Source: Escherichia virus TH32. From it: a stretch of 64,000 nt of DNA. This document shows, one piece after another, positions 3,407 through 31,551 of this stretch (position 1 is its first letter; every line of letters begins with the position of its first letter). The translations under genes were made by a program, and so were the position numbers. The notes under the pieces were generated by a model. It was not told the DNA's origin. It ran no database searches and saw only the letters and a program-made list of their open reading frames with translations. The stretch lies in sequence record MT446405.1. One strand, written 5' to 3'.

Positions 3407-4024
3407 TTAACGAGTCAATTGTACAATGGTATAAGTGGAAGACTGGACGCTTGGGCCGGAAAGGGCAATAGCAGTCGGGTCAATCACGATACCGCCTGGA
3501 ATGGCAACCATGCCAGTTGGCAGTGAGCCAGTATAGGCGATAATTGCACCGATAGGCAAGTTGTTCGGGTTGTTACCGCTGGAAATGCCTTTAGGTACAT
3601 AAGCGAGCAGGTCGCCGTAGTTCAGCGTCTGCGGACTGGTGCTTGGGTTGAATACTTCAACTACGAGGCCCGTGCACATATCGTAGAACTCGCCTTCGCT
3701 ATATTGAGGCAGAACCATGCTGGCACCCAAAGGACCAGTAGAGTTGCCATACAGAGCGTAACGCTTGCTGTTGCCAAGGATGCCATAGTAATTGGTGCCG
3801 CCCAGTTCAACTTCAAAGTCCTGCGCGCCCAAGGTTTTGGTCTGGCCAGTACCCATTAATGACACATCAGCCTTAAAACCAAACACACGGCTGATGGCGT
3901 TTACGTTTGCACCGTCGTTGGCGCTAACGATTCGGCCTGGCTTCCCACGCTGTGGGCCGTCGCGAACGATGTCGCCAGGAAAGCCAGTTGTATATTGACG
4001 GCCTACACTAGTTTGGAAAGTCAT
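3407..4024 (-). CDS. Gly/Ser-rich capsid-associated protein (possible decoration protein)
   Basis: Start moved to Met at 4024 preceded by AAGGGGA RBS; lies between scaffold and capsid genes. Confidence 0.3.
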   Translation of the reverse strand: MTFQTSVGRQYTTGFPGDIVRDGPQRGKPGRIVSANDGANVNAISRVFGFKADVSLMGTGQTKTLGAQDFEVELGGTNYYGILGNSKRYALYGNSTGPLGASMVLPQYSEGEFYDMCTGLVVEVFNPSTSPQTLNYGDLLAYVPKGISSGNNPNNLPIGAIIAYTGSLPTGMVAIPGGIVIDPTAIALSGPSVQSSTYTIVQLTR

Positions 4025-4026
4025 GT

Positions 4027-5448
4027 TTATTCCCCTTTCAACCAAGCTTCAAATGCTTCGTCAGTTGCTGCAGAATCCGCAGCGGCCTTTTGTTTTGCGA
4101 CTACACGCTGTTTTTGACCGTGCTCAACGCCGCGCAGATAATTATCCACCACGTCAAACTCAGCCCCATCAACGCACTTCAAGCCTAACTTTTTAGCGCC
4201 ATATTTCGCTACGGACTTGGAGTCCATAGTTGCATGATCAAAGGCACCAACAACTTTAGACAGGCGCTGGTAGAGGCTATTCTTACGAGCAGAATCAGCG
4301 TAGAAAGCAGCAACTGCTGAATCAGATGCCATTGAGTGTTCCCCTTTTGCTGGACCTGGCGACGCTTTCGCCGCTTTTGTCGGTTTGTCATCTTTTTCGA
4401 CCGAAGCCCCCTTTACGTTGCTGTTTTGCAGGCCGCTAACCACATCTTCAGCTTTGTCGCAAGGTGATACATCTTCAGCCTTGACTTCAACTTCTTCTTC
4501 GTCTTTGACTTCGGCTTCAACTTCTTCTTCATCACCTACCGCGCCACCTTTCAGTTTTGCAATAAGTGCTTCGATTTGGCTGATCAATTGCGGAAGTTCG
4601 CCGCCAGCGTGAGATTCAGCTTCAACTTCAAACTTCTCTTCACCTTCTGGGGTTTCTTCTGCTTCTGCCTTGACTTCTGGATCAACCATTACTTCTTCAC
4701 GATTTTCGGTTGAGTCCTTCTCTTCTGCTTTCACTTCAACTTCATCCTGATGAGCAGCTTCAGTACTCTCTTCGTTCAGAAATTGTTCGAGCGCAGGAAT
4801 CAGTGATTTCAGCTGTTCAACAGCATTATCACGCGCTTTACCTTTTAACGGTTTTGGCATGTCTAAATCCTCGTTGGATGGTGTTACAGTCGTCAAACAA
4901 AGATGGTCAAAGCAACGACCATCCAGCACCCGTGCACCTGGTACTCGACCAACGTCCACGAGAGCAATGTGGTTGCCGCGAAGAGTTGTCTGCACCACTT
5001 CATACGGCTGCCCGTCAAACTCTCCAGACTGTATGATGAATTCACAGTCATAGCCCAAAGACAAGTCAACCTTTCCAGAATCAATGGCCTTCTTAAGACG
5101 ACGGCTGAACACTTTAAGGTCGCCGCGCATCCATGGCTTGTCATAATAAACATTGCCAGTCAGAACGCCATCAACTCCATACTCTTCGGGTGCTGTGTTA
5201 TCCTCATCACCTTCAAATCCAGAAAGCATTTCGTGATTGTCGATGAAAGGGATATTTTTGAATGAATCTATCGCTTCGGGGTCTTTCACCGCTGACTCAG
5301 GGCGATAGACTTTTACGATGCGATTCGGATCACCATCAAGACCAACTTGACCAGCAGAATAATCAAAAATGCCAAATGACGAAATTGGACAACCCATAAT
5401 CGTCAAGAATCCATTTTTGTCAATTTCGCGTGCCGTTTGCATTCGCAT
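4027..5448 (-). CDS. scaffolding protein (possibly fused to prohead protease-like N-domain)
   Basis: 473 aa with long acidic Glu/Val/Ala/Lys-rich central stretch (EEEVEAEVKDEEEVEVKAED...), GAGGGTGG RBS; position between portal and capsid genes. Confidence 0.45.
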   Translation of the reverse strand: MRMQTAREIDKNGFLTIMGCPISSFGIFDYSAGQVGLDGDPNRIVKVYRPESAVKDPEAIDSFKNIPFIDNHEMLSGFEGDEDNTAPEEYGVDGVLTGNVYYDKPWMRGDLKVFSRRLKKAIDSGKVDLSLGYDCEFIIQSGEFDGQPYEVVQTTLRGNHIALVDVGRVPGARVLDGRCFDHLCLTTVTPSNEDLDMPKPLKGKARDNAVEQLKSLIPALEQFLNEESTEAAHQDEVEVKAEEKDSTENREEVMVDPEVKAEAEETPEGEEKFEVEAESHAGGELPQLISQIEALIAKLKGGAVGDEEEVEAEVKDEEEVEVKAEDVSPCDKAEDVVSGLQNSNVKGASVEKDDKPTKAAKASPGPAKGEHSMASDSAVAAFYADSARKNSLYQRLSKVVGAFDHATMDSKSVAKYGAKKLGLKCVDGAEFDVVDNYLRGVEHGQKQRVVAKQKAAADSAATDEAFEAWLKGE

Positions 5449-5558: not shown

Positions 5559-5830
5559 GATACGGATGATACGGATAAAATGAGGCGTATTTTTATCCGT
5601 ATCGGTGTATAAGCCGCGCTATCACTGGTGTGCTACGGATGATACGGATGATACGGATACTTTTCATATATAAGAGTTTATAAAAAAATAAAATTAAATT
5701 AGATATATAATTTTAAATTAATTTATTTGAATTCCTATATAGTACTGCGGCAACGCGTATCATCCGTATCATCCGTAAGATTCTTTTGAAAACAACAACT
5801 TACTTGATACGGATGATACGTCATTATACG
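5559..5830. repeat. iteron cluster flanking AT-rich core (copy 1)
   Basis: GATACGGATGATACGG-type repeats in both orientations at 5559-5577, 5634-5660, 5756-5779, 5806-5820 around a >85% AT core at 5660-5745. Confidence 0.7.
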
Positions 5831-18054: not shown

Positions 18055-18640
18055 CCGCGCAGGAGTGTACTGCAAATTTCCTGTGGGTACAAAATAGTAC
18101 GGTACTGTCCAGGACTTTTTCTTTGAAAAGTTAGTGGACCAAATGTGTAGTATTTTGATTAGTGTACCGCAAATTCCATCAAGTACCAAAACGCACCAAA
18201 AGACCCATGCCATAAAAACCACACGAACGCAATAATCAATCGACGTTACAGTTTCCAGCGTTACAATTCGAAAGCGAATGATTCGACGCATAATAATATG
18301 AAGCATAATGATTCGAAAGCAAATGATTGCGTGTAGGATAATATCGGTGGGGATTATTCTAGATGCATGTAATTTCGCATGCGTACTATTTTCGGACGAA
18401 GGGTCGGCATATTCCTCGTTTTAGTTCGGAACGAAGGGAAAGTTTTGCGCCTTTATAAAACAACGACTTACGCGACCCGCCCTAACGGTCCGATATAGGT
18501 GTCTATATAAAACAAGGACTTACGCGATGTTCTCCATTTAACGTAATACCTGTTATGCGAACTAAGACGCATCTCGAAGAAGATTATGCGACGACGAAGG
18601 GAAGGATAAAGGAGTTTTCGCGTAGGAGCGCATCGAGATA
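18055..18640. repeat. repeat-rich non-coding region
   Basis: Approx. 600 bp without credible ORF; repeat families GTAC(T/C)GCAAATT(T)CC, AATGATTCGAAAGC, CGAAGGGA and TATAAAACAA(C/G)GACTTACGCGA. Confidence 0.6.
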
Positions 18641-18645
18641 GGGAC

Positions 18646-18671
18646 GAAGAAAAGCCGCGACTAAGCGCGGC
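18646..18671 (-). terminator. rho-independent terminator (minus strand)
   Basis: Minus-strand GCCGCG-cttagt-CGCGGC followed by UUUUCUUC, 20 nt after stop of 18692..18982. Confidence 0.55.
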
Positions 18672-18691
18672 CTATTAGTAACGGAAGGGTA

Positions 18692-18982
18692 TTATAAGGA
18701 GACGATTTTAAAATAAGTTACTTCGCCGCCGAGTTGCGGTACAGCGATATATTCGCCGCCGATTTCGGTAATCGTATAAACGAAGCCGTTAATCGTTACG
18801 CGATAGGATACGATGTCCTCGTCGCGATACTTGTAAAGGTCGAGGAAGTTGATCGGCTCATAAATAGACTCGATAATCGCGTCTACGTTAGAGAGATAAA
18901 CGCTCTCTAAGGTTTCGCCAAATACGTTAGAGTTTTCGGAAGTTTCGACGCGAGCGGAACGGATAGCGGCTAAAGTAATCAT
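18692..18982 (-). CDS. small acidic protein, paralog family A/C
   Basis: 96 aa, AGGAGA RBS; paralogous to 19617..19901. Confidence 0.6.
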   Translation of the reverse strand: MITLAAIRSARVETSENSNVFGETLESVYLSNVDAIIESIYEPINFLDLYKYRDEDIVSYRVTINGFVYTITEIGGEYIAVPQLGGEVTYFKIVSL

Positions 18983-19049
18983 AATAATCTCCTAGTTGGT
19001 CGGGCGGGTAGCGACCTATTCGCTACCTCATCCCCTCTCGATATAAAAC

Positions 19050-19078
19050 ATTATAGTCTTAGTGTACGAAGAAGTAAA
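19050..19078 (-). promoter_or_regulatory. sigma70-like promoter
   Basis: Minus strand TTTACT-N17-TATAAT. Confidence 0.5.
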
Positions 19079-19090
19079 GCACTTTTTTCG

Positions 19091-19393
19091 TTATTTTGCG
19101 ATAAAATATTTATAAGCTTTATCGCCTTCTACGTCGATATACTCGACGATAATTAATGCTTCGCCGCGAGGCGTAACCGTCTCGATAAGGGTAACGGCTT
19201 CGTCGTCGGTCTTCGCGAAGCGGATGGCGCTACGTTCGGCGTATTTAATTTCGTCGAAGGAAAGGCCGACGAAGGCGACGGCGCGCGCTTTAATAATGCT
19301 CGTTTCGAGTTCCGCGTTAACGGCAGCGATAAGAGAGCGAACGGTTAAGCGGTCTTCGTCGTAAGTAAGGATGGAAGAGATTAAAGTAGTCAT
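19091..19393 (-). CDS. small protein, distant member of the same family
   Basis: Start at Met 19393 with GGGAGC RBS. Confidence 0.5.
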   Translation of the reverse strand: MTTLISSILTYDEDRLTVRSLIAAVNAELETSIIKARAVAFVGLSFDEIKYAERSAIRFAKTDDEAVTLIETVTPRGEALIIVEYIDVEGDKAYKYFIAK

Positions 19394-19449
19394 AATAAAG
19401 CTCCCGATGCTAGTAGAAGGAAGGGCCATCGCCCGTCTCGATATAAACA

Positions 19450-19477
19450 AGTATACGCGAGTGTACGAAGAAGTAAA
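19450..19477 (-). promoter_or_regulatory. sigma70-like promoter
   Basis: Minus strand TTTACT-N16-TATACT. Confidence 0.5.
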
Positions 19478-19520
19478 GAAAAAGATAAAATAATTTATCG
19501 CATTTTTATCGAAAAAGTGC

Positions 19521-19549
19521 TTTACTTTTTTCTACACTATATTATAATG
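19521..19549 (+). promoter_or_regulatory. sigma70-like promoter (divergent partner)
   Basis: TTTACT-N17-TATAAT. Confidence 0.5.
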
Positions 19550-19616
19550 TACTCATATCGGGACGGGATGAGTTAACGAATAGGTCGTTAACGCCTCTCC
19601 CAACTAGGAGTTTAAA

Positions 19617-19901
19617 ATGGCTATTCTTAACGTTTCTTCTATCCGTAACGCCATCGTCGAGAACTACGGCGTAAAACAAAAATTATCCGAAGTCTACGCC
19701 GCGAACGTAGACCAAACTATCGAAGAGGGTGGGGTAACGGTCGCCGAGGCTTTTAAACTTTACGCGGCGTTACCGGAATCGGACCGCGAAGCCTTCGAAG
19801 TAAACGTTAACGGATACTTCTTCGAAGCGGTCGAAATCGGTAATATTTTACTCGTTATGGGCGAAGAAGAATTTGAGACCTTCTCCCTCGTCGAAGCGTA
19901 A
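19617..19901 (+). CDS. small acidic protein, paralog family A/C
   Basis: 94 aa, TAGGAG RBS; shares motifs with 18692..18982. Confidence 0.6.
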   Translation: MAILNVSSIRNAIVENYGVKQKLSEVYAANVDQTIEEGGVTVAEAFKLYAALPESDREAFEVNVNGYFFEAVEIGNILLVMGEEEFETFSLVEA

Positions 19902-19981
19902 GAGAGGATTTTTAGAGCGTCGTGCGCGGCGCTTTAATAAAATTCTTTCGCGCCTAGCGCCCTAACAAATAGGAGTTTATT

Positions 19982-20608
19982 ATGGTTAGCTTAAATCGCT
20001 TTTCTACTAGCGGCGACGTTATCGCAACTAAGACCGCCGACCTCGTTGCATTTTACAATGCAAATTCCGGTTCGAAGCCGATTAAAAAGTTCGCTGACCG
20101 CCGGACCGCCGAGACTCGCGTAATCGCGCTAATCGAGTCCTTAAACGCGCTCGATGAGCCGTCCAACGAATCGCCCATCCCAGACGCGAAGCCGCGCGAG
20201 GAAGTGTCCAGCGATGTAAAAACGCACAAGGCGCGTGCGGTCGTTAAAAAGGCCGAGCCGACCCAGGAAGAACTCGACGCGATGAGCGATGAAGAGTATG
20301 AAGCCTTCGTTAAGAGCGGCTTAAACGATAGTGCAAATTGCGTAGTGCAAAATGGAACTCCTTCCCATCGCCGTTCGAATAGCGAAGGTATTGCAAAAAG
20401 TTGGGATAATAAGGAAGTGGCGCAAAAGCGTCTTACCCGTAACGGCGTTATGGTCGAGGGTGTAGGCGAGTTCAAATCGGTCCGCGTAGCATTCGCCGCG
20501 CTGGGCTTACCGGATAGCAAACACATTCGCTTCCGTATGAAGCTTAAGGAAGCTGGGCGCTTGAACTTCGAGTTCGGCAACAAGTCCTACACATTCCAGA
20601 TTATCTAA
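19982..20608 (+). CDS. hypothetical protein
   Basis: 208 aa, TAGGAG RBS; CpG-rich coding; contains two copies of the ATAGTGCAAAT motif in frame. Confidence 0.5.
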   Translation: MVSLNRFSTSGDVIATKTADLVAFYNANSGSKPIKKFADRRTAETRVIALIESLNALDEPSNESPIPDAKPREEVSSDVKTHKARAVVKKAEPTQEELDAMSDEEYEAFVKSGLNDSANCVVQNGTPSHRRSNSEGIAKSWDNKEVAQKRLTRNGVMVEGVGEFKSVRVAFAALGLPDSKHIRFRMKLKEAGRLNFEFGNKSYTFQII

Positions 20609-20615
20609 TCGAATG

Positions 20616-20640
20616 GCGGCCCTTCGGGGTCGCTTTTCAT
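20616..20640 (+). terminator. rho-independent terminator
   Basis: GCGGCCC-ttcg-GGGTCGC followed by TTTTCAT. Confidence 0.55.
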
Positions 20641-20983
20641 AGTGCAAATTGGTGGCTTATGAATACGCTTATTCTCATCGCTACGTTGTCCATCGGAAGT
20701 GGTCGCACCTTATCCCTTTACGACCATAGTGCAAATTGCGCTTACCCTACGCGCGTTGCGGCAATAGTTAATAGTGCAAATCGAATGCTATTCGAAACTT
20801 GTTGGCGGGTCGATAACGAGAAAGGGCGCATCGTCTTAGGTTATAGTGCGAATCTGCTGGTGGAGTCGTTCGATTGGACGGTTGAAGGTCGTAAATTGTT
20901 ACGTAAGGTGACTAAAAGATGACTTATAATAATACACTTTCTAACGCGTTTATGGTTGTAACCTTCCCCGTCGTATTACCGAT

Positions 20984-21023
20984 GGCCCTAGAAGTGGAGA
21001 AAATGTGTTCTAGGGCCGTTTTA
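20984..21023 (+). terminator. long hairpin, terminator-like
   Basis: 10 bp inverted repeat GGCCCTAGAA / TTCTAGGGCC with 14 nt loop followed by GTTTTA. Confidence 0.35.
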
Positions 21024-21036
21024 TAGTGCAAATTGG

Positions 21037-21509
21037 CTAGTGGCGGGAGAATTGCTCGCCTTCTTTGGCCGCCTCTCCGAAATCCTTGTAGAAATCGTCC
21101 ATGGAACGGCCCATTTTACTATTGCCGTTTTCATCAATCATCGTGATGCCGTAGATGATATTCAGTTCACGAATAGCATTAAGTTTGGCTGACGCCGCGA
21201 CTTCTGGATCACGCACAAGCTTGACCAAATTGTGAATTGCACCTTTTACGCTCCACAAATCCTTGAGTGGCATCTCTTCCATACGCTTTTTGAAGCGCAT
21301 TTTGTAGTATGGGTTGCGTTGCGCGCAAAGGATTCGCTGGCCAGTGTAGCTATCCGTTGCAACTTCCATTCCAAATACTAGTGCAAAAGCTGCGCGCATG
21401 TCATGGCCCTGAATAACAAGGTCAATGAACTCATCGAATAAAGCCTGATTGTGCTCTGCAAATCGCGGGTCTTCAAAGTCTTCAGGCATCGCTACATAAT
21501 CTTGACTCA
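21037..21509 (-). CDS. hypothetical protein
   Basis: Start at Met (MSQDY...) whose ATG lies inside an ATTTGCACTATG motif copy. Confidence 0.45.
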
Positions 21510-21738
21510 TAGTGCAAAATCCCATAGTGCAAATTAATAGTGTGAATTATACAATGGATGGACATTATATTCAAGTGCAGATTGATGTTCATTATGGCTA
21601 TAAACGTACACAAATCACAGTGCTGAATGGATAACGGACCGTGGTGCGTGGTGTACTGTTTGATACGTATAAAAGAAATCCATCCCTTTTGCCGCTTGTT
21701 ATGCAAATCAATGACTTAGCCGCTGCTGGCTGGTCGAA

Positions 21739-22011
21739 GCGTATCATGACGTATCATCCGTATTGCCGCAAGTCTTTGTTTTTACTTATATCTTACGGAT
21801 AATACGTTAAATATATAAATTAACATAAGTATGAGGATGTAGAAAAAAATTAATTTAAATGATTTTAAAATGGAGTTAATTAATTTTTCAAATTATATAT
21901 ATAACGATGCCCAGTTTTATCCGTATCATCCGTAAGATTAATGTACAAGCCAGGCGCGGCAAGGGCTGTACACTGATACGGATAAAAAACCATGACGTAT
22001 CATGACGTAAG
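21739..22011. repeat. iteron cluster flanking AT-rich core (copy 2)
   Basis: Same (C)GTATCATCCGTA-type repeats and AT-rich core (21800-21905) as at 5559-5830. Confidence 0.7.
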
Positions 22012-22270
22012 GGTGTACCAATTTGGAAAGGATGAATCCAGGAACGGCGCGGCCTGTAGCCATGATACGCTTAATTTTTAACCGTATTTTAGGCGTATCA
22101 AATGTGTTCAAACACCAAGTTTCACGACACTAAAATTTCAATCCATAGACAATTCCTAACAAACACCACGGACTAATAGATACGCCCTATAAAATATATT
22201 TCTAAATATTTCCGCACAATCAATAAATAAAACACAACCTCATAATCATTCCATCGCAAAACACGACCCA

Positions 22271-29233: not shown

Positions 29234-29881
29234 TTATCCTGTGGCCTGCATATTGCGTACATACTTCTGCTCTAATGAATAGATGAAGTCGGCGACAGTC
29301 AATCCCTTCGTGTGCCATTCATACATGGTGAAGCCTGTATTCAGGAAATAGCCGCGCACCTTGTCCATCGCTTCAGCTTCCTCCATTGAAGCCATCAGCG
29401 CCGCGACATTGTCATAAGAAGGCACAAATCCCTTCTTGCGTAGCGCATTGCGCAAATCCTTAGTTCGGAATCCAATCTTGCAGGGGTCATCACGACCCGT
29501 GGATGATGCGACCTTTGGAAGAGCAAGGAACTCTTTAAGGAACATTGCAATGTTCAAGTCGCCTGCGTCATCAAGCTTCTGGATTCGGTTGCGACCGCGA
29601 CCCTTGAATTCACTCGCACGAGGGTGAGAGCCAAAACAGTGCGCCCCTTCCAGTTTAGGGTCAATGATCATTACATCTTTCCCAATGCGCAACTCTACGT
29701 AGTAAAGATAAGACTCATCGACAAGCTTTGTGCGCTTGCAAGTGATTGAGTCCTTATCATAACCAAAGCCACGCAACACGGTTGAAATCATCCGGTTCAT
29801 TTCTTCGCCGTGAACATCACTTTCTTTGTTCAGTTCACCAAGATGTTGAAAGAATTTAGCGATGTTGATTGCTTTATTCAT
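29234..29881 (-). CDS. hypothetical protein
   Basis: 215 aa directly downstream of helicase gene. Confidence 0.4.
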   Translation of the reverse strand: MNKAINIAKFFQHLGELNKESDVHGEEMNRMISTVLRGFGYDKDSITCKRTKLVDESYLYYVELRIGKDVMIIDPKLEGAHCFGSHPRASEFKGRGRNRIQKLDDAGDLNIAMFLKEFLALPKVASSTGRDDPCKIGFRTKDLRNALRKKGFVPSYDNVAALMASMEEAEAMDKVRGYFLNTGFTMYEWHTKGLTVADFIYSLEQKYVRNMQATG

Positions 29882-31551
29882 CAGAATTCATCCTTATCTC
29901 TTCCCAAAGAACGTTTACGCTCAATAACCTTCTTCAAGAATTCAATATCTTCAGGGTCAGACTCATCGCGGATAAGATACGCTAAGATGGTCATCAAATC
30001 AGAAATGTATTCTCCTGCTTCATTCTTAATCAGCGGCGTAAAGTAACCGCGCTGGTTGCGATAGGTTGCAGGCTCAAAACCAAGCTTCGACATATGCGGC
30101 GCAAGGGTACGAGAGAAAGGCGACTTGCCGCACTTCGCTCTGAATCCCATAGCAATAGCACCACTGGTGATGTGCCAGCGTCCGCTGTGATGTCGGTCAT
30201 AAGGCGCGGTGATGACGACTTCAACAAGGTCGTTGTCCACCATCTCATCACGAATAACGCCGCGCGCACGTTCCATTTCGTTCTTACTAAACTCAGTAAG
30301 CATGCGAGATGTTTCACCAACAAACGCGTTGTAACCTGCTTCGCCGTGTTTTTCCATCCACGCAGCACACTCAGCCATCAACTGCCAAACGTCTTCTTTC
30401 AAAGTGGAAAGGTCAGCTTGGAAATCTTTCGACCAGTTCGGTTGCCCGTCCTTGTCAGCGAGTTGGCCAACAAAGATAGGGTACACACGACGGTTGCCCG
30501 TGTCGTCACGCTGCATGCCTGCGTATTCGTTGCCGTCCATGATCGCAATCCACTGGCGTGGTTTAACCTGAGTATCTTCAAATTTGAAGTCCAGGTCATC
30601 TTCCGTCTTAGTCAGGAATGCTTTCATGTTTTCGATGTCGGCCTTTTTAAAGCCTGTCATCTCGCCAACGTTCGCGATAATTGAGCGACCCGTAATAGCT
30701 CGCAAGAACGGGTTGAAGTTCTGCGCGGCTAAGTTCAACGGAATCGGTGTTGCGTGGCGGTCGTTCATAATAGCTTCGCAAAGCAGCTTGCTAAAATAAC
30801 TTTTCCCTGCGTTCTGGCCGCCGATGAGCGCGATAGAAATTGGCGCTTGACAGCCAGGGTTGGTCAGGCGGTTATAGAGCGATAGCCAAAAATACACACC
30901 GATTTGTCGGTTTAACTCTGTATCGAACGGTCGGAATAGCTCGATAAGGTATTTCTCGATGCGCGCAGTACCGTCCCATTCAGGCAGCTTCTTGTAGAAG
31001 AAGTCCATCAGGTCGTCGCGCTGATAACGCATGGCCCATTCCTTATAGGATTGAGCGACCTGACGTGAGTTTGGGTTAGACAGCCCTGCTGCGTCGACAG
31101 CGGCAACTATCTCTGTGACTTCCAAGGTACGGTCAGTGAATGTTTCGCCGCGATGGTCGACTAAGCGCCCACGAAAAGTATCTTTGTGAGGGAATGGAAC
31201 AATGCCACTTCCCTTATCAAACAACGCGTCGAAAACCGCATAACGGTTCATGTCACTCGTCCGGTCTGCCTGTAGAACGAAGTCATCTTTGGTAGGCTTG
31301 TAGTGAGGGAACTTGATTACCTGAAGTGAGGCGAGCAAGCGTGCTCTTTCAACCAAGTCTTCTTCACCGTAGCATTCCATGCGCTCTGAATCTTTTTCAA
31401 CAGCTTTATGTTGAAGGCTGATTTTAGCTCTGGTGCCTTGCTGCTCTGCTGCCTGCATTTCTTCCGAAACGCCTGCATCTTGAATTTCGTCAAAGATTGC
31501 ACCAAATTCATCACCTGTATCCTCTGGAAGATTGTCATTATTAATTGACAT
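29881..31551 (-). CDS. P-loop NTPase, D5/VirE-like primase-associated helicase (putative)
   Basis: Walker A IALIGGQNAGKSYF in C-terminal half, 556 aa; occurs with an AEP primase two genes upstream. Confidence 0.5.
   Translation of the reverse strand: MSINNDNLPEDTGDEFGAIFDEIQDAGVSEEMQAAEQQGTRAKISLQHKAVEKDSERMECYGEEDLVERARLLASLQVIKFPHYKPTKDDFVLQADRTSDMNRYAVFDALFDKGSGIVPFPHKDTFRGRLVDHRGETFTDRTLEVTEIVAAVDAAGLSNPNSRQVAQSYKEWAMRYQRDDLMDFFYKKLPEWDGTARIEKYLIELFRPFDTELNRQIGVYFWLSLYNRLTNPGCQAPISIALIGGQNAGKSYFSKLLCEAIMNDRHATPIPLNLAAQNFNPFLRAITGRSIIANVGEMTGFKKADIENMKAFLTKTEDDLDFKFEDTQVKPRQWIAIMDGNEYAGMQRDDTGNRRVYPIFVGQLADKDGQPNWSKDFQADLSTLKEDVWQLMAECAAWMEKHGEAGYNAFVGETSRMLTEFSKNEMERARGVIRDEMVDNDLVEVVITAPYDRHHSGRWHITSGAIAMGFRAKCGKSPFSRTLAPHMSKLGFEPATYRNQRGYFTPLIKNEAGEYISDLMTILAYLIRDESDPEDIEFLKKVIERKRSLGRDKDEF

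Follow-up and report, generated by a model that had tools for sequence, protein, structure and literature searches.

Locus and motif array

We analysed a 64,000-nucleotide stretch of the genome of Escherichia virus TH32 (sequence record MT446405.1; hereafter the window), which carries an array of short repeats at the gene encoding the small terminase subunit (terS). Ten strong copies of an 11-bp motif form a single cluster at positions 20328-21534, all of them on the plus strand, and no match of similar strength lies outside this cluster in the 64 kb. The array spans the following genes.

19982-20608, plus strand: gp004-like gene, 208 amino acids, kept beside terS in all four genera
20659-20922, plus strand: gp003-like small open reading frame (ORF), 87 amino acids, with three motif copies, a hydrophobic N-terminus and an invariant Cys-Trp
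21037-21510, minus strand: terS, small terminase subunit, 157 amino acids, identified by the annotation of phage Mansfield, a match to PDB 7UXE and Foldseek

The minus-strand gene, listed as an early gene in the initial annotation of the window, is not a typical early gene and encodes the small terminase (TerS). Its product matches TerS of the Pseudomonas phage E217, a decamer (PDB 7UXE), with E = 7e-34 and 41% identity; the AlphaFold2 model (predicted local distance difference test score, pLDDT, 82.9) has 7UXE as its top Foldseek match (E = 1.5e-5), and the HHpred match reported by the Mansfield annotators was to SF6 TerS. The gene is convergent with the plus-strand unit gp005-gp004-gp003 (19617-20922). 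A predicted terminator closes each of the two units and two motif copies stand right after these hairpins. Predicted sigma-70 promoters of terS have -10 hexamers ending at 21546 and 21564, which puts copies 9 and 10 and a decayed copy in the terS leader. The copies, with their scores from a position-weight matrix (PWM) where given, are as follows.

20328-20338, plus strand: copy 1, ATAGTGCAAAT, in the 3' part of the gp004-like gene; PWM 21.9
20342-20352, plus strand: copy 2, GTAGTGCAAAA, 14 bp past copy 1; PWM 19.7
20639-20649, plus strand: copy 3, ATAGTGCAAAT, right after the hairpin and T-run 3' of the gp004-like gene; PWM 25.4
20726-20736, plus strand: copy 4, within the small ORF 20659-20922; PWM 23.9
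20771-20781, plus strand: copy 5, within the small ORF 20659-20922; PWM 21.4
20843-20853, plus strand: copy 6, ATAGTGCGAAT, for which other Wifcevirus genomes have ATAGTGCAAAT; next, 3 bp on, comes a Chi site
21023-21033, plus strand: copy 7, right after the bidirectional terminator hairpin between the convergent units; PWM 23.9
21378-21388, plus strand: copy 8, CTAGTGCAAAA, inside terS, coding for F-A-L of helix 38-46
21509-21519, plus strand: copy 9, ATAGTGCAAAA, overlapping the terS start codon (ATG is the complement of 21508-21510)
21524-21534, plus strand: copy 10, 15 bp beyond copy 9 within the 5' leader of terS
21537, plus strand: decayed copy, ATAGTGTGAAT, in the terS leader after copy 10

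About ten motifs in one orientation had been noticed from the letters alone, and this description was borne out. Two copies do fall within the 3' portion of ORF 19982-20608 and code for NDSANCVVQNG there, five were correctly placed at 20639-21033, and the tandem pair at 21509 and 21524 sits at the start codon of the minus-strand ORF, with the minus-strand reading TTTTGCACTATG. To these we added the copy at 21378 inside the minus-strand ORF and the decayed copy at 21537.

The extended consensus is (C)ATAGTGCAAAT(TG), or AATTTGCACTAT in the direction of terS, with the core TYGCACTA; the motif is also written ATTTGCACTAT and AATTTGCACTATG. Allowing one mismatch at most, ATAGTGCAAAT has eight matches, every one on the plus strand within 20328-21534, and the exact 9-mer TAGTGCAAA has nine on the plus strand (20329-21533), with no further match on either strand of the 64 kb. 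The PWM was built from the array sites and scanned over the window: the ten strong sites scored 14-25, compared with at most 12.5 for all remaining matches. Exact TYGCACTA is expected about 0.04 times per strand in 1.2 kb and was observed 10 times. The comparison with shuffled sequence that had been proposed at the outset, together with the PWM scan, leads us to reject chance or composition as the source of the array. The inter-copy spacings are unphased (15, 131, 355, 180, 72, 45, 87, 297 and 14 bp), and the earlier view that the array is not a clustered regularly interspaced short palindromic repeat (CRISPR) locus is supported.

In the rest of the window no copy was found where higher-order Markov models predict about two. 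Because so few are expected this absence is not significant by itself, and active avoidance of the motif outside the array was rejected. We also rejected the possibility that the repeats are a by-product of protein repeats, as the copies are spread over non-coding DNA and three genes, which use both coding strands, and all point the same way in the DNA; moreover, the gp003 homologues of Serratia phages lack the DNA motif. The conserved core GCACTA does not match the critical positions of the binding sites compared with it, namely the DnaA and MotA boxes, the operator of P1 C1, the marbox, sigma-54 and the tf-type nick site.

The array lies inside the terminal repeat

The phage belongs to Wifcevirus and is an E. 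coli myophage of 68 kb; identity of the window to 28 Wifcevirus phages is 93-97.5% (including WFC, WFH, FEC19, ECML-117, Mansfield and Bas98-101). Wifcevirus comprises myoviruses of E. coli and Shigella with genomes of 66-72 kb, distant kin of Pbunavirus (PMC11990801), and their terminal repeats measure about 3.7 kb (PMC6563267). The features of the repeat are listed below.

18199-21871, no strand: direct terminal repeat, 3673 bp, from the PhageTerm annotation in phage Mansfield; the terS-proximal physical end is 21871
18161-18177, plus strand: boundary element AGTGTACCGCAAATT, 22-38 bp outside the far repeat boundary, equal to TAGTG and CAAATT with a 5-nt insert between them
18064-18080, plus strand: second boundary element AGTGTACTGCAAATT, in array orientation; PWM 10.6

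Position 1 of both the Mansfield and the WFC record corresponds to window position 21871, and the Mansfield-type inner boundary to 18199. Thus the array lies entirely inside the terminal repeat, 337-1543 bp from the physical genome end. The WFC record holds both repeat copies, which are identical over 3784 bp. The repeat defined from WFC is 111 bp longer at the inner boundary (about window 18088) than the 3673 bp of Mansfield; the Mansfield inner boundary agrees with those of the phages MyoSmar (Myosmarvirus) and Kyle (Kylevirus).

The far repeat boundary (window 18150-18206, about position 3603 in Kyle and position 1 in MyoSmar) is conserved in Wifcevirus, Kylevirus and Myosmarvirus: it is followed directly by TGGTGCG(A/T)TTT and about 25 nt on by GTACACTAA, a sequence that is likely a terminase cleavage or termination signal. 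Both boundary elements read AGTGTAC(C/T)GCAAATT, that is, a TAGTG-N5-CAAATT form of the motif in array orientation, 22-135 bp beyond this boundary, and their core TTAGTGTAC is common to the Kyle and MyoSmar boundaries. The split motif at the far boundary therefore ties the motif to both ends of the repeat. Next to the array comes a non-coding stretch of 0.8 kb, richer in AT and poorer in genes than any other part of the window (GC 0.38-0.41 at 21-23 kb).

A different repeat of the GATACG type, (T)ACGGATGATACG, forms two clusters with nine GATACG cores each (5559-5815 and 21662-22179), often as 9-bp-phased tandem pairs and in both orientations. One cluster lies upstream of the head-gene operon and the other upstream of terS, where it straddles the physical end at 21871. 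As the true terminase site these repeats were rejected: they are also clustered upstream of the head genes (5559-5815) and for this reason look transcriptional, not terminus-specific. We consider ACGGATGATACG a candidate late-gene regulatory or promoter element linking terS expression to the head genes.

Distribution of the array among relatives

A tblastn search with TerS retrieved 358 phage records, from Pbunavirus, Kylevirus (Pantoea), Myosmarvirus (Serratia) and phages of Xanthomonas, Burkholderia and Salmonella. The distance between the terS start and one end of the repeat or record is 350-600 bp in Kyle, MyoSmar and the Pbunavirus E2005-C, and a convergent gp004 homologue comes after the gene. 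Kyle carries 9-10 and PA1 10 co-oriented TYGCACTA copies at about +220 to +1150 from the terS start, and there is no motif copy in the remainder of the 73-kb Kyle genome. No TYGCACTA array was found in Myosmarvirus, Pbunavirus or any of the other IMG/VR relatives, nor did de novo k-mer searches downstream of terS in array-less relatives yield any other significant array.

Subsequently, 26 diverse TerS proteins recovered by a profile search were aligned. Wifcevirus, P0135, P0132, P0130, P0134, P0128 and P0142 together with Kyle and PA1 form a clade whose TerS reads Q/K/R-R-N-P-Y-Y, whereas every other TerS, from at least 14 array-less lineages, has an invariant Glu at the Q/K/R position. We examined contigs of five members of this clade (L167-L171) and of one Glu-type lineage (L172). 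All five of the former carry co-oriented arrays, with 10-14 copies each of a relaxed core (G[CT]ACTA, counted within about 2.1 kb per lineage), and the Glu-type contig has no array. Exact copies number six to eight each in L167, L168, L169 and L170; L171 has only two and otherwise the variant CCGCACTA/TTGTACTA. Across eight lineages (Wifcevirus, Kyle, PA1 and the five metagenomic contigs) the relaxed core occurs 10-17 times in the forward and 0-1 times in the reverse orientation in each, which sums to 103 forward versus 3 reverse copies. The arrays of these lineages span about -115 to +1200 from the terS start (-21 to +1174 in the window) irrespective of the genes that lie there, and TerS identity falls as low as 43%. 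At the terS promoter and start, copies are lacking in Kylevirus and PA1. Positions turn over in part between relatives, and at least 14 relatives lack an array.

A host-factor site common to unrelated phages was rejected as well. A scan of viral contigs for paired copies gave an array only in Wifcevirus among the matches listed, the other multi-copy loci among them being coding tandem repeats, which speaks weakly against such a site.

Several further repeats were seen near terS. A degenerate copy, AATCCGTACTAC, lies inside terS at +200 from the start in L168, L170, L171, Kyle and PA1 and encodes N-P-Y-Y, the peptide adjoining the Glu versus Gln/Lys/Arg position that marks array-bearing TerS proteins; this overlap may be a coincidence or a constraint acting at two levels. 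MyoSmar has three direct copies of AAAAATAAGCATGC, 29-65 bp apart, just downstream of terS (4526-4634), which could be the Myosmarvirus counterpart of the array. More distant relatives have short repeats of their own in both orientations within the roughly 400 bp preceding terS, the expected place of the genome end (loci L026 and L028, and L009 and L031; CGAACTTGC in one pair and CCGTTATAT/CGTAATATC in the other).

Selection and positional turnover

The array regions of Kyle and PA1 are 55-63% identical, yet 4-5 of their 9-10 sites fall in homologous alignment columns, the remaining copies being lineage-specific. Positions also differ between Wifcevirus and L168-L171. Within Wifcevirus, 14 genomes carry 7-10 copies each; copy 3 (20639) is invariant across them, and the pair in the gp004-like gene is missing from one clade through mosaic replacement. 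The mosaic segment corresponds to window 20320-20356: most Wifcevirus phages encode NDSANCVVQNG and two motif copies there, and the ECML-117/Ro157lw/RCIP0319 clade has unrelated, motif-free sequence, without copies 1 and 2. When these two copies were excluded, 5 of 88 columns were variable in the eight remaining sites among the 14 genomes, compared with 145 of 1053 in the background (Fisher P = 0.03). Judged from these alignments, the array sites are under purifying selection and functional, because positions are homologous between Kyle and PA1 and variability among Wifcevirus genomes is low. What the compared sequences conserve is mainly copy number, orientation and neighbourhood, and less so exact position.

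Chi sites in the same region

The terminal repeat of the window holds a single E. coli Chi site, which is invariant in the 14 Wifcevirus genomes.

20856-20863, plus strand: Chi octamer GCTGGTGG, the sole E. coli Chi in the terminal repeat, in the orientation of the motif array

True Chi arrays of 4-10 sites occupy the terS-proximal 1-2 kb of Kylevirus, L168-L171 and Myosmarvirus (Kyle 255-1972; MyoSmar record 2107-2447), and PA1 and L172 are listed with such arrays too. Kyle has nine Chi sites in this region versus four co-oriented and two opposite ones elsewhere, and MyoSmar four versus one. Every Chi site of the region has the orientation in which it acts on RecBCD coming in from the terS-proximal end. 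Six keep their positions in both Kyle and PA1, whose nucleotide identity is about 60%, and in one alignment column Kyle has Chi where PA1 has TTGCACTA. Arrays of Pseudomonas Chi (GCTGGCGC) were looked for beside terS in Pbunavirus and are absent.

Proteins encoded near the array and shared by the clade

The gp003-like protein is, from its predicted features, probably exported or a membrane protein. The gp004-like protein is possibly a two-domain DNA-binding protein. It belongs to an uncharacterised family of 831 clusters at 50% identity, which often have only the C-terminal 80 residues in common; its fold, predicted with confidence (pLDDT 85.7), has no clear structural relative, and there are weak SAP-like and I-HmuI-like DNA-binding matches. 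A search with the single gp004 sequence found near-identical Wifcevirus proteins only.

Seven real ORFs are common to Wifcevirus and Kyle and absent from MyoSmar, none with a Pfam or PHROG function. A 215-residue ORF at 29234-29881 on the minus strand lies directly downstream of the VirE-like primase-helicase gene (29881-31551, minus strand) and has no family match. Its Kyle homologue is 30% identical and MyoSmar has none. The product is a possible clade-specific partner of the replication initiator.

A candidate packaging-recognition array

As the best-supported reading, we tentatively propose, at somewhat less than an even chance, that the array is a set of packaging-recognition sites with TerS as the candidate binder. 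The repeats would be co-oriented cis-acting sites bound by a phage-encoded DNA-binding protein in packaging, of which TerS is the likeliest. The outward-facing helix-turn-helix domains of the TerS ring would each bind one asymmetric site weakly, and the many sites in one orientation over terS and the next 600-700 bp, just inside the repeat, would provide avidity. Such sites could mark the concatemer end for terminase assembly, with the large subunit cutting about 340 bp off at the repeat boundary, and the split elements outside the other boundary would mark the terminating cut. In addition, the two to three copies in the terS leader and start codon might let TerS limit its own synthesis. We infer both the binder and the effect of its binding; the array, its place in the terminal repeat, the identity of terS, the recurrence in relatives and the selection on the sites are observed. 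Taken generally, the initial proposal of a sequence-specific DNA-binding protein with repeated sites still describes the array best; its version as classical iterons fits poorly, the unphased spacing of about 14-356 bp and the positional turnover being unlike those.

The array is centred on terS and lies 337-1543 bp from the physical end. Furthermore, in the alignment the presence of Q/K/R followed by R, as opposed to Glu, in TerS tracks the presence of an array perfectly. In the AlphaFold2 model these residues (Q64-R65) form the end of helix 56-65 in the N-terminal helical domain, and in other small terminases the N-terminal region is a DNA-binding helix-turn-helix domain (PMC9611059). TerS of E217 carries Glu, and no appreciable binding to DNA was seen with it in vitro (PMC9611059).

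Several points weigh against TerS as the reader of the array. The correlation with the TerS residue is phylogenetically confounded, because the Q/K/R proteins form one clade and any clade-specific protein would correlate equally. At 1.2 kb, and with its start about 340 bp from the cut, the array is much larger than λ cosB, SPP1 pac and P1 pac and several-fold farther away, and its unphased spacing and positional turnover disfavour a fixed nucleoprotein architecture. The isolated DNA-binding domain of SF6/SPP1 TerS showed no preference for pac repeats in vitro (PMC4737164). Moreover, Myosmarvirus and probably Pbunavirus, with the same boundary sequences, package without such an array, and gp004, encoded inside the array region, may bind DNA too.

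By analogy, the array resembles SPP1 pac, λ cosB, P1 pac and the adenovirus A repeats in design. The pac region of SPP1 consists of three sets of direct repeats that span promoters and the start of the terS gene (PMC4737164), and that of P22 lies inside terS (PMC9611059). Like the array, SPP1/SF6 pac (boxA, boxB and boxC; pacL-pacC-pacR) has direct repeats at terS, but SPP1 is a headful packager whose pac covers a few hundred bp with two copies per box, whereas Wifcevirus has one motif in about ten copies over 1.2 kb, exact ends and a 3.7-kb terminal repeat. λ cosB (R1-R3, bound by gpNu1) and P1 pac (seven hexamers on the flanks of the cut) have repeated TerS-binding elements beside the cut and terS on the packaged side. 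They are compact (about 120-160 bp), with fixed spacing and with host-factor sites or Dam methylation, in contrast to an array whose nearest copy is about 340 bp from the cut and whose spacing is irregular and positions turn over; repeated TerS-binding elements near the cut, of the λ cosB/P1 pac type, have been described (PMC9611059).

The SRL and SRR heptamers of T7, a phage with exact ends, were reportedly described by Dunn and Studier in 1983 as irregularly spaced, co-oriented and situated beside its direct terminal repeat. What they do in concatemer processing is not known to have been settled. They differ from the array in that T7 is a podovirus whose repeat measures 160 bp and whose terminase is unrelated, and in lying outside the repeat and not around terS. 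The A repeats of adenovirus lie a few hundred bp from the end and have the bipartite motif TTTG-N8-CG. Adenovirus is a eukaryotic virus with unrelated packaging proteins, so the likeness is a design analogy only; a published account (PMC5033970) gives the functionally redundant, short, asymmetric A repeats near the left genome end as the packaging signal.

Alternative explanations

It is unlikely, though the strongest alternative to TerS as binder, that another phage DNA-binding protein uses the sites, be it as operators or a silencing platform for the genes of the terminal repeat, or for bridging the two repeat copies. An operator function had been suggested at the outset, and two to three copies (9, 10 and the decayed one) do occupy the stretch from a predicted terS -10 hexamer to the start codon. 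The remaining eight are situated within coding sequence, as most copies are, or behind terminators, and Kylevirus and PA1, which have no copies at the terS promoter or start, do without this arrangement. As for the protein itself, a gp004-like protein or one found only in Wifcevirus and Kylevirus would be candidates, and several proteins are confined to these two genera, for example the product of 29234-29881 (minus strand). Nevertheless, gp004 and its putative recognition helix are nearly invariant over the 831 clusters, array-less lineages included, which makes it a poor candidate for reading a clade-specific motif; gp003 looks exported, and no DNA-binding domain can be recognised in any of the proteins exclusive to Wifcevirus and Kylevirus.

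We consider it distinctly unlikely that the repeats act as a Chi-like polar signal, read on one strand by an enzyme that enters from the nearby DNA end, to protect the terS-proximal end or promote recombination between repeats. A helicase-nuclease, of the host or of the phage, would be a candidate reader, as would the packaging motor. TYGCACTA would then be a second, lineage-specific polar signal beside or instead of Chi for end protection, repeat recombination or the choice of the boundary cut, a role to which we give the same low weight. Such a signal would explain why the motif has the niche and orientation of Chi arrays, why number and not position is conserved and why a split motif stands at the terminating cut. 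Co-orientation is strict (103 forward versus 3 reverse), copy number is kept while positions turn over, and the motif shares its 1-2 kb, and its orientation, with the true Chi arrays of Kylevirus and Myosmarvirus. The column with Chi in Kyle and TTGCACTA in PA1 fits as well, as does the occurrence of the motif with only one Chi site in Wifcevirus and none in its nearest relative. Terminal clusters of oriented Chi are a documented strategy of lambdoid phages and P1 (PMC12315714), and those of LLS-type lambdoids and P1 share with the array the many co-oriented asymmetric octamers near an end or in terminal repeats (PMC12315714). Against this, the motif is not Chi: it has only TnGTG in common with GCTGGTGG, and Wifcevirus keeps a single Chi in its repeat. 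Motif and Chi do not compensate for each other (10 + 9 in Kyle, 10 + 7 in PA1 and 0 + 4 in MyoSmar), and we know of no enzyme that reads the array motif. A signal read by the host is further opposed by the occurrence of the array in one phage clade only, with no unrelated phage carrying it among the viral-contig matches listed; this limitation suggests a phage-encoded reader and not one of the host.

Improbable, too, is a replication origin in which the copies are iterons bound by the P4 alpha-like VirE primase-helicase (29881-31551, minus strand) or by a clade-specific neighbour, with the AT-rich stretch being unwound. About ten direct repeats of 8-11 bp on one strand, next to the AT-rich, gene-poor 0.8 kb, would suit such an origin. 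The ori and crr of P4 have dispersed 8-bp iterons bound by the alpha protein, and the 215-residue neighbour of the primase-helicase occurs only in array-bearing genera. By contrast, the spacing over 1.2 kb and the positional turnover are unlike those of well-known origins. Furthermore, the array follows terS and not any replication gene, the replication genes are 8-12 kb off, and the array is missing from relatives whose replication proteins are homologous.

Promoter elements of a phage-specific transcription system, the other early suggestion, are very unlikely and essentially excluded, since the motif, conserved and asymmetric though it is and with two copies preceding terS, is found only at the array (with no other copy in the 64 kb or in the remaining 67 kb of Kyle) and in a single orientation across convergent operons, seven to eight of the ten copies lie inside genes or right after terminators, and it is a different repeat, ACGGATGATACG, that the regions upstream of terS and the head genes have in common.

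Implications

The published papers that we found on these phages do not mention the motif. In a review the mechanism of DNA recognition by small terminases was termed "elusive and controversial" (PMC9611059), and the array offers a concrete, testable substrate for the question of how a ring-shaped small terminase recognises DNA. The clade is a suitable test case, with an 11-bp motif in about ten co-oriented copies, a one-residue difference in TerS and the culturable, K-12-compatible isolates Bas98-101. One phage, vB_Eco4M-7, can be reassembled from PCR fragments (PMC11074155). If TerS is not the binder, the shared location with Chi arrays points to an end-processing signal that has so far gone unrecognised. 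If TerS does bind the motif, this would be the first recognition element defined for a myovirus with long terminal repeats in the Pbunavirus-related group, to which therapy phages belong, and it would be useful for engineering these phages, for judging their safety with respect to transduction and for rebooting synthetic genomes.

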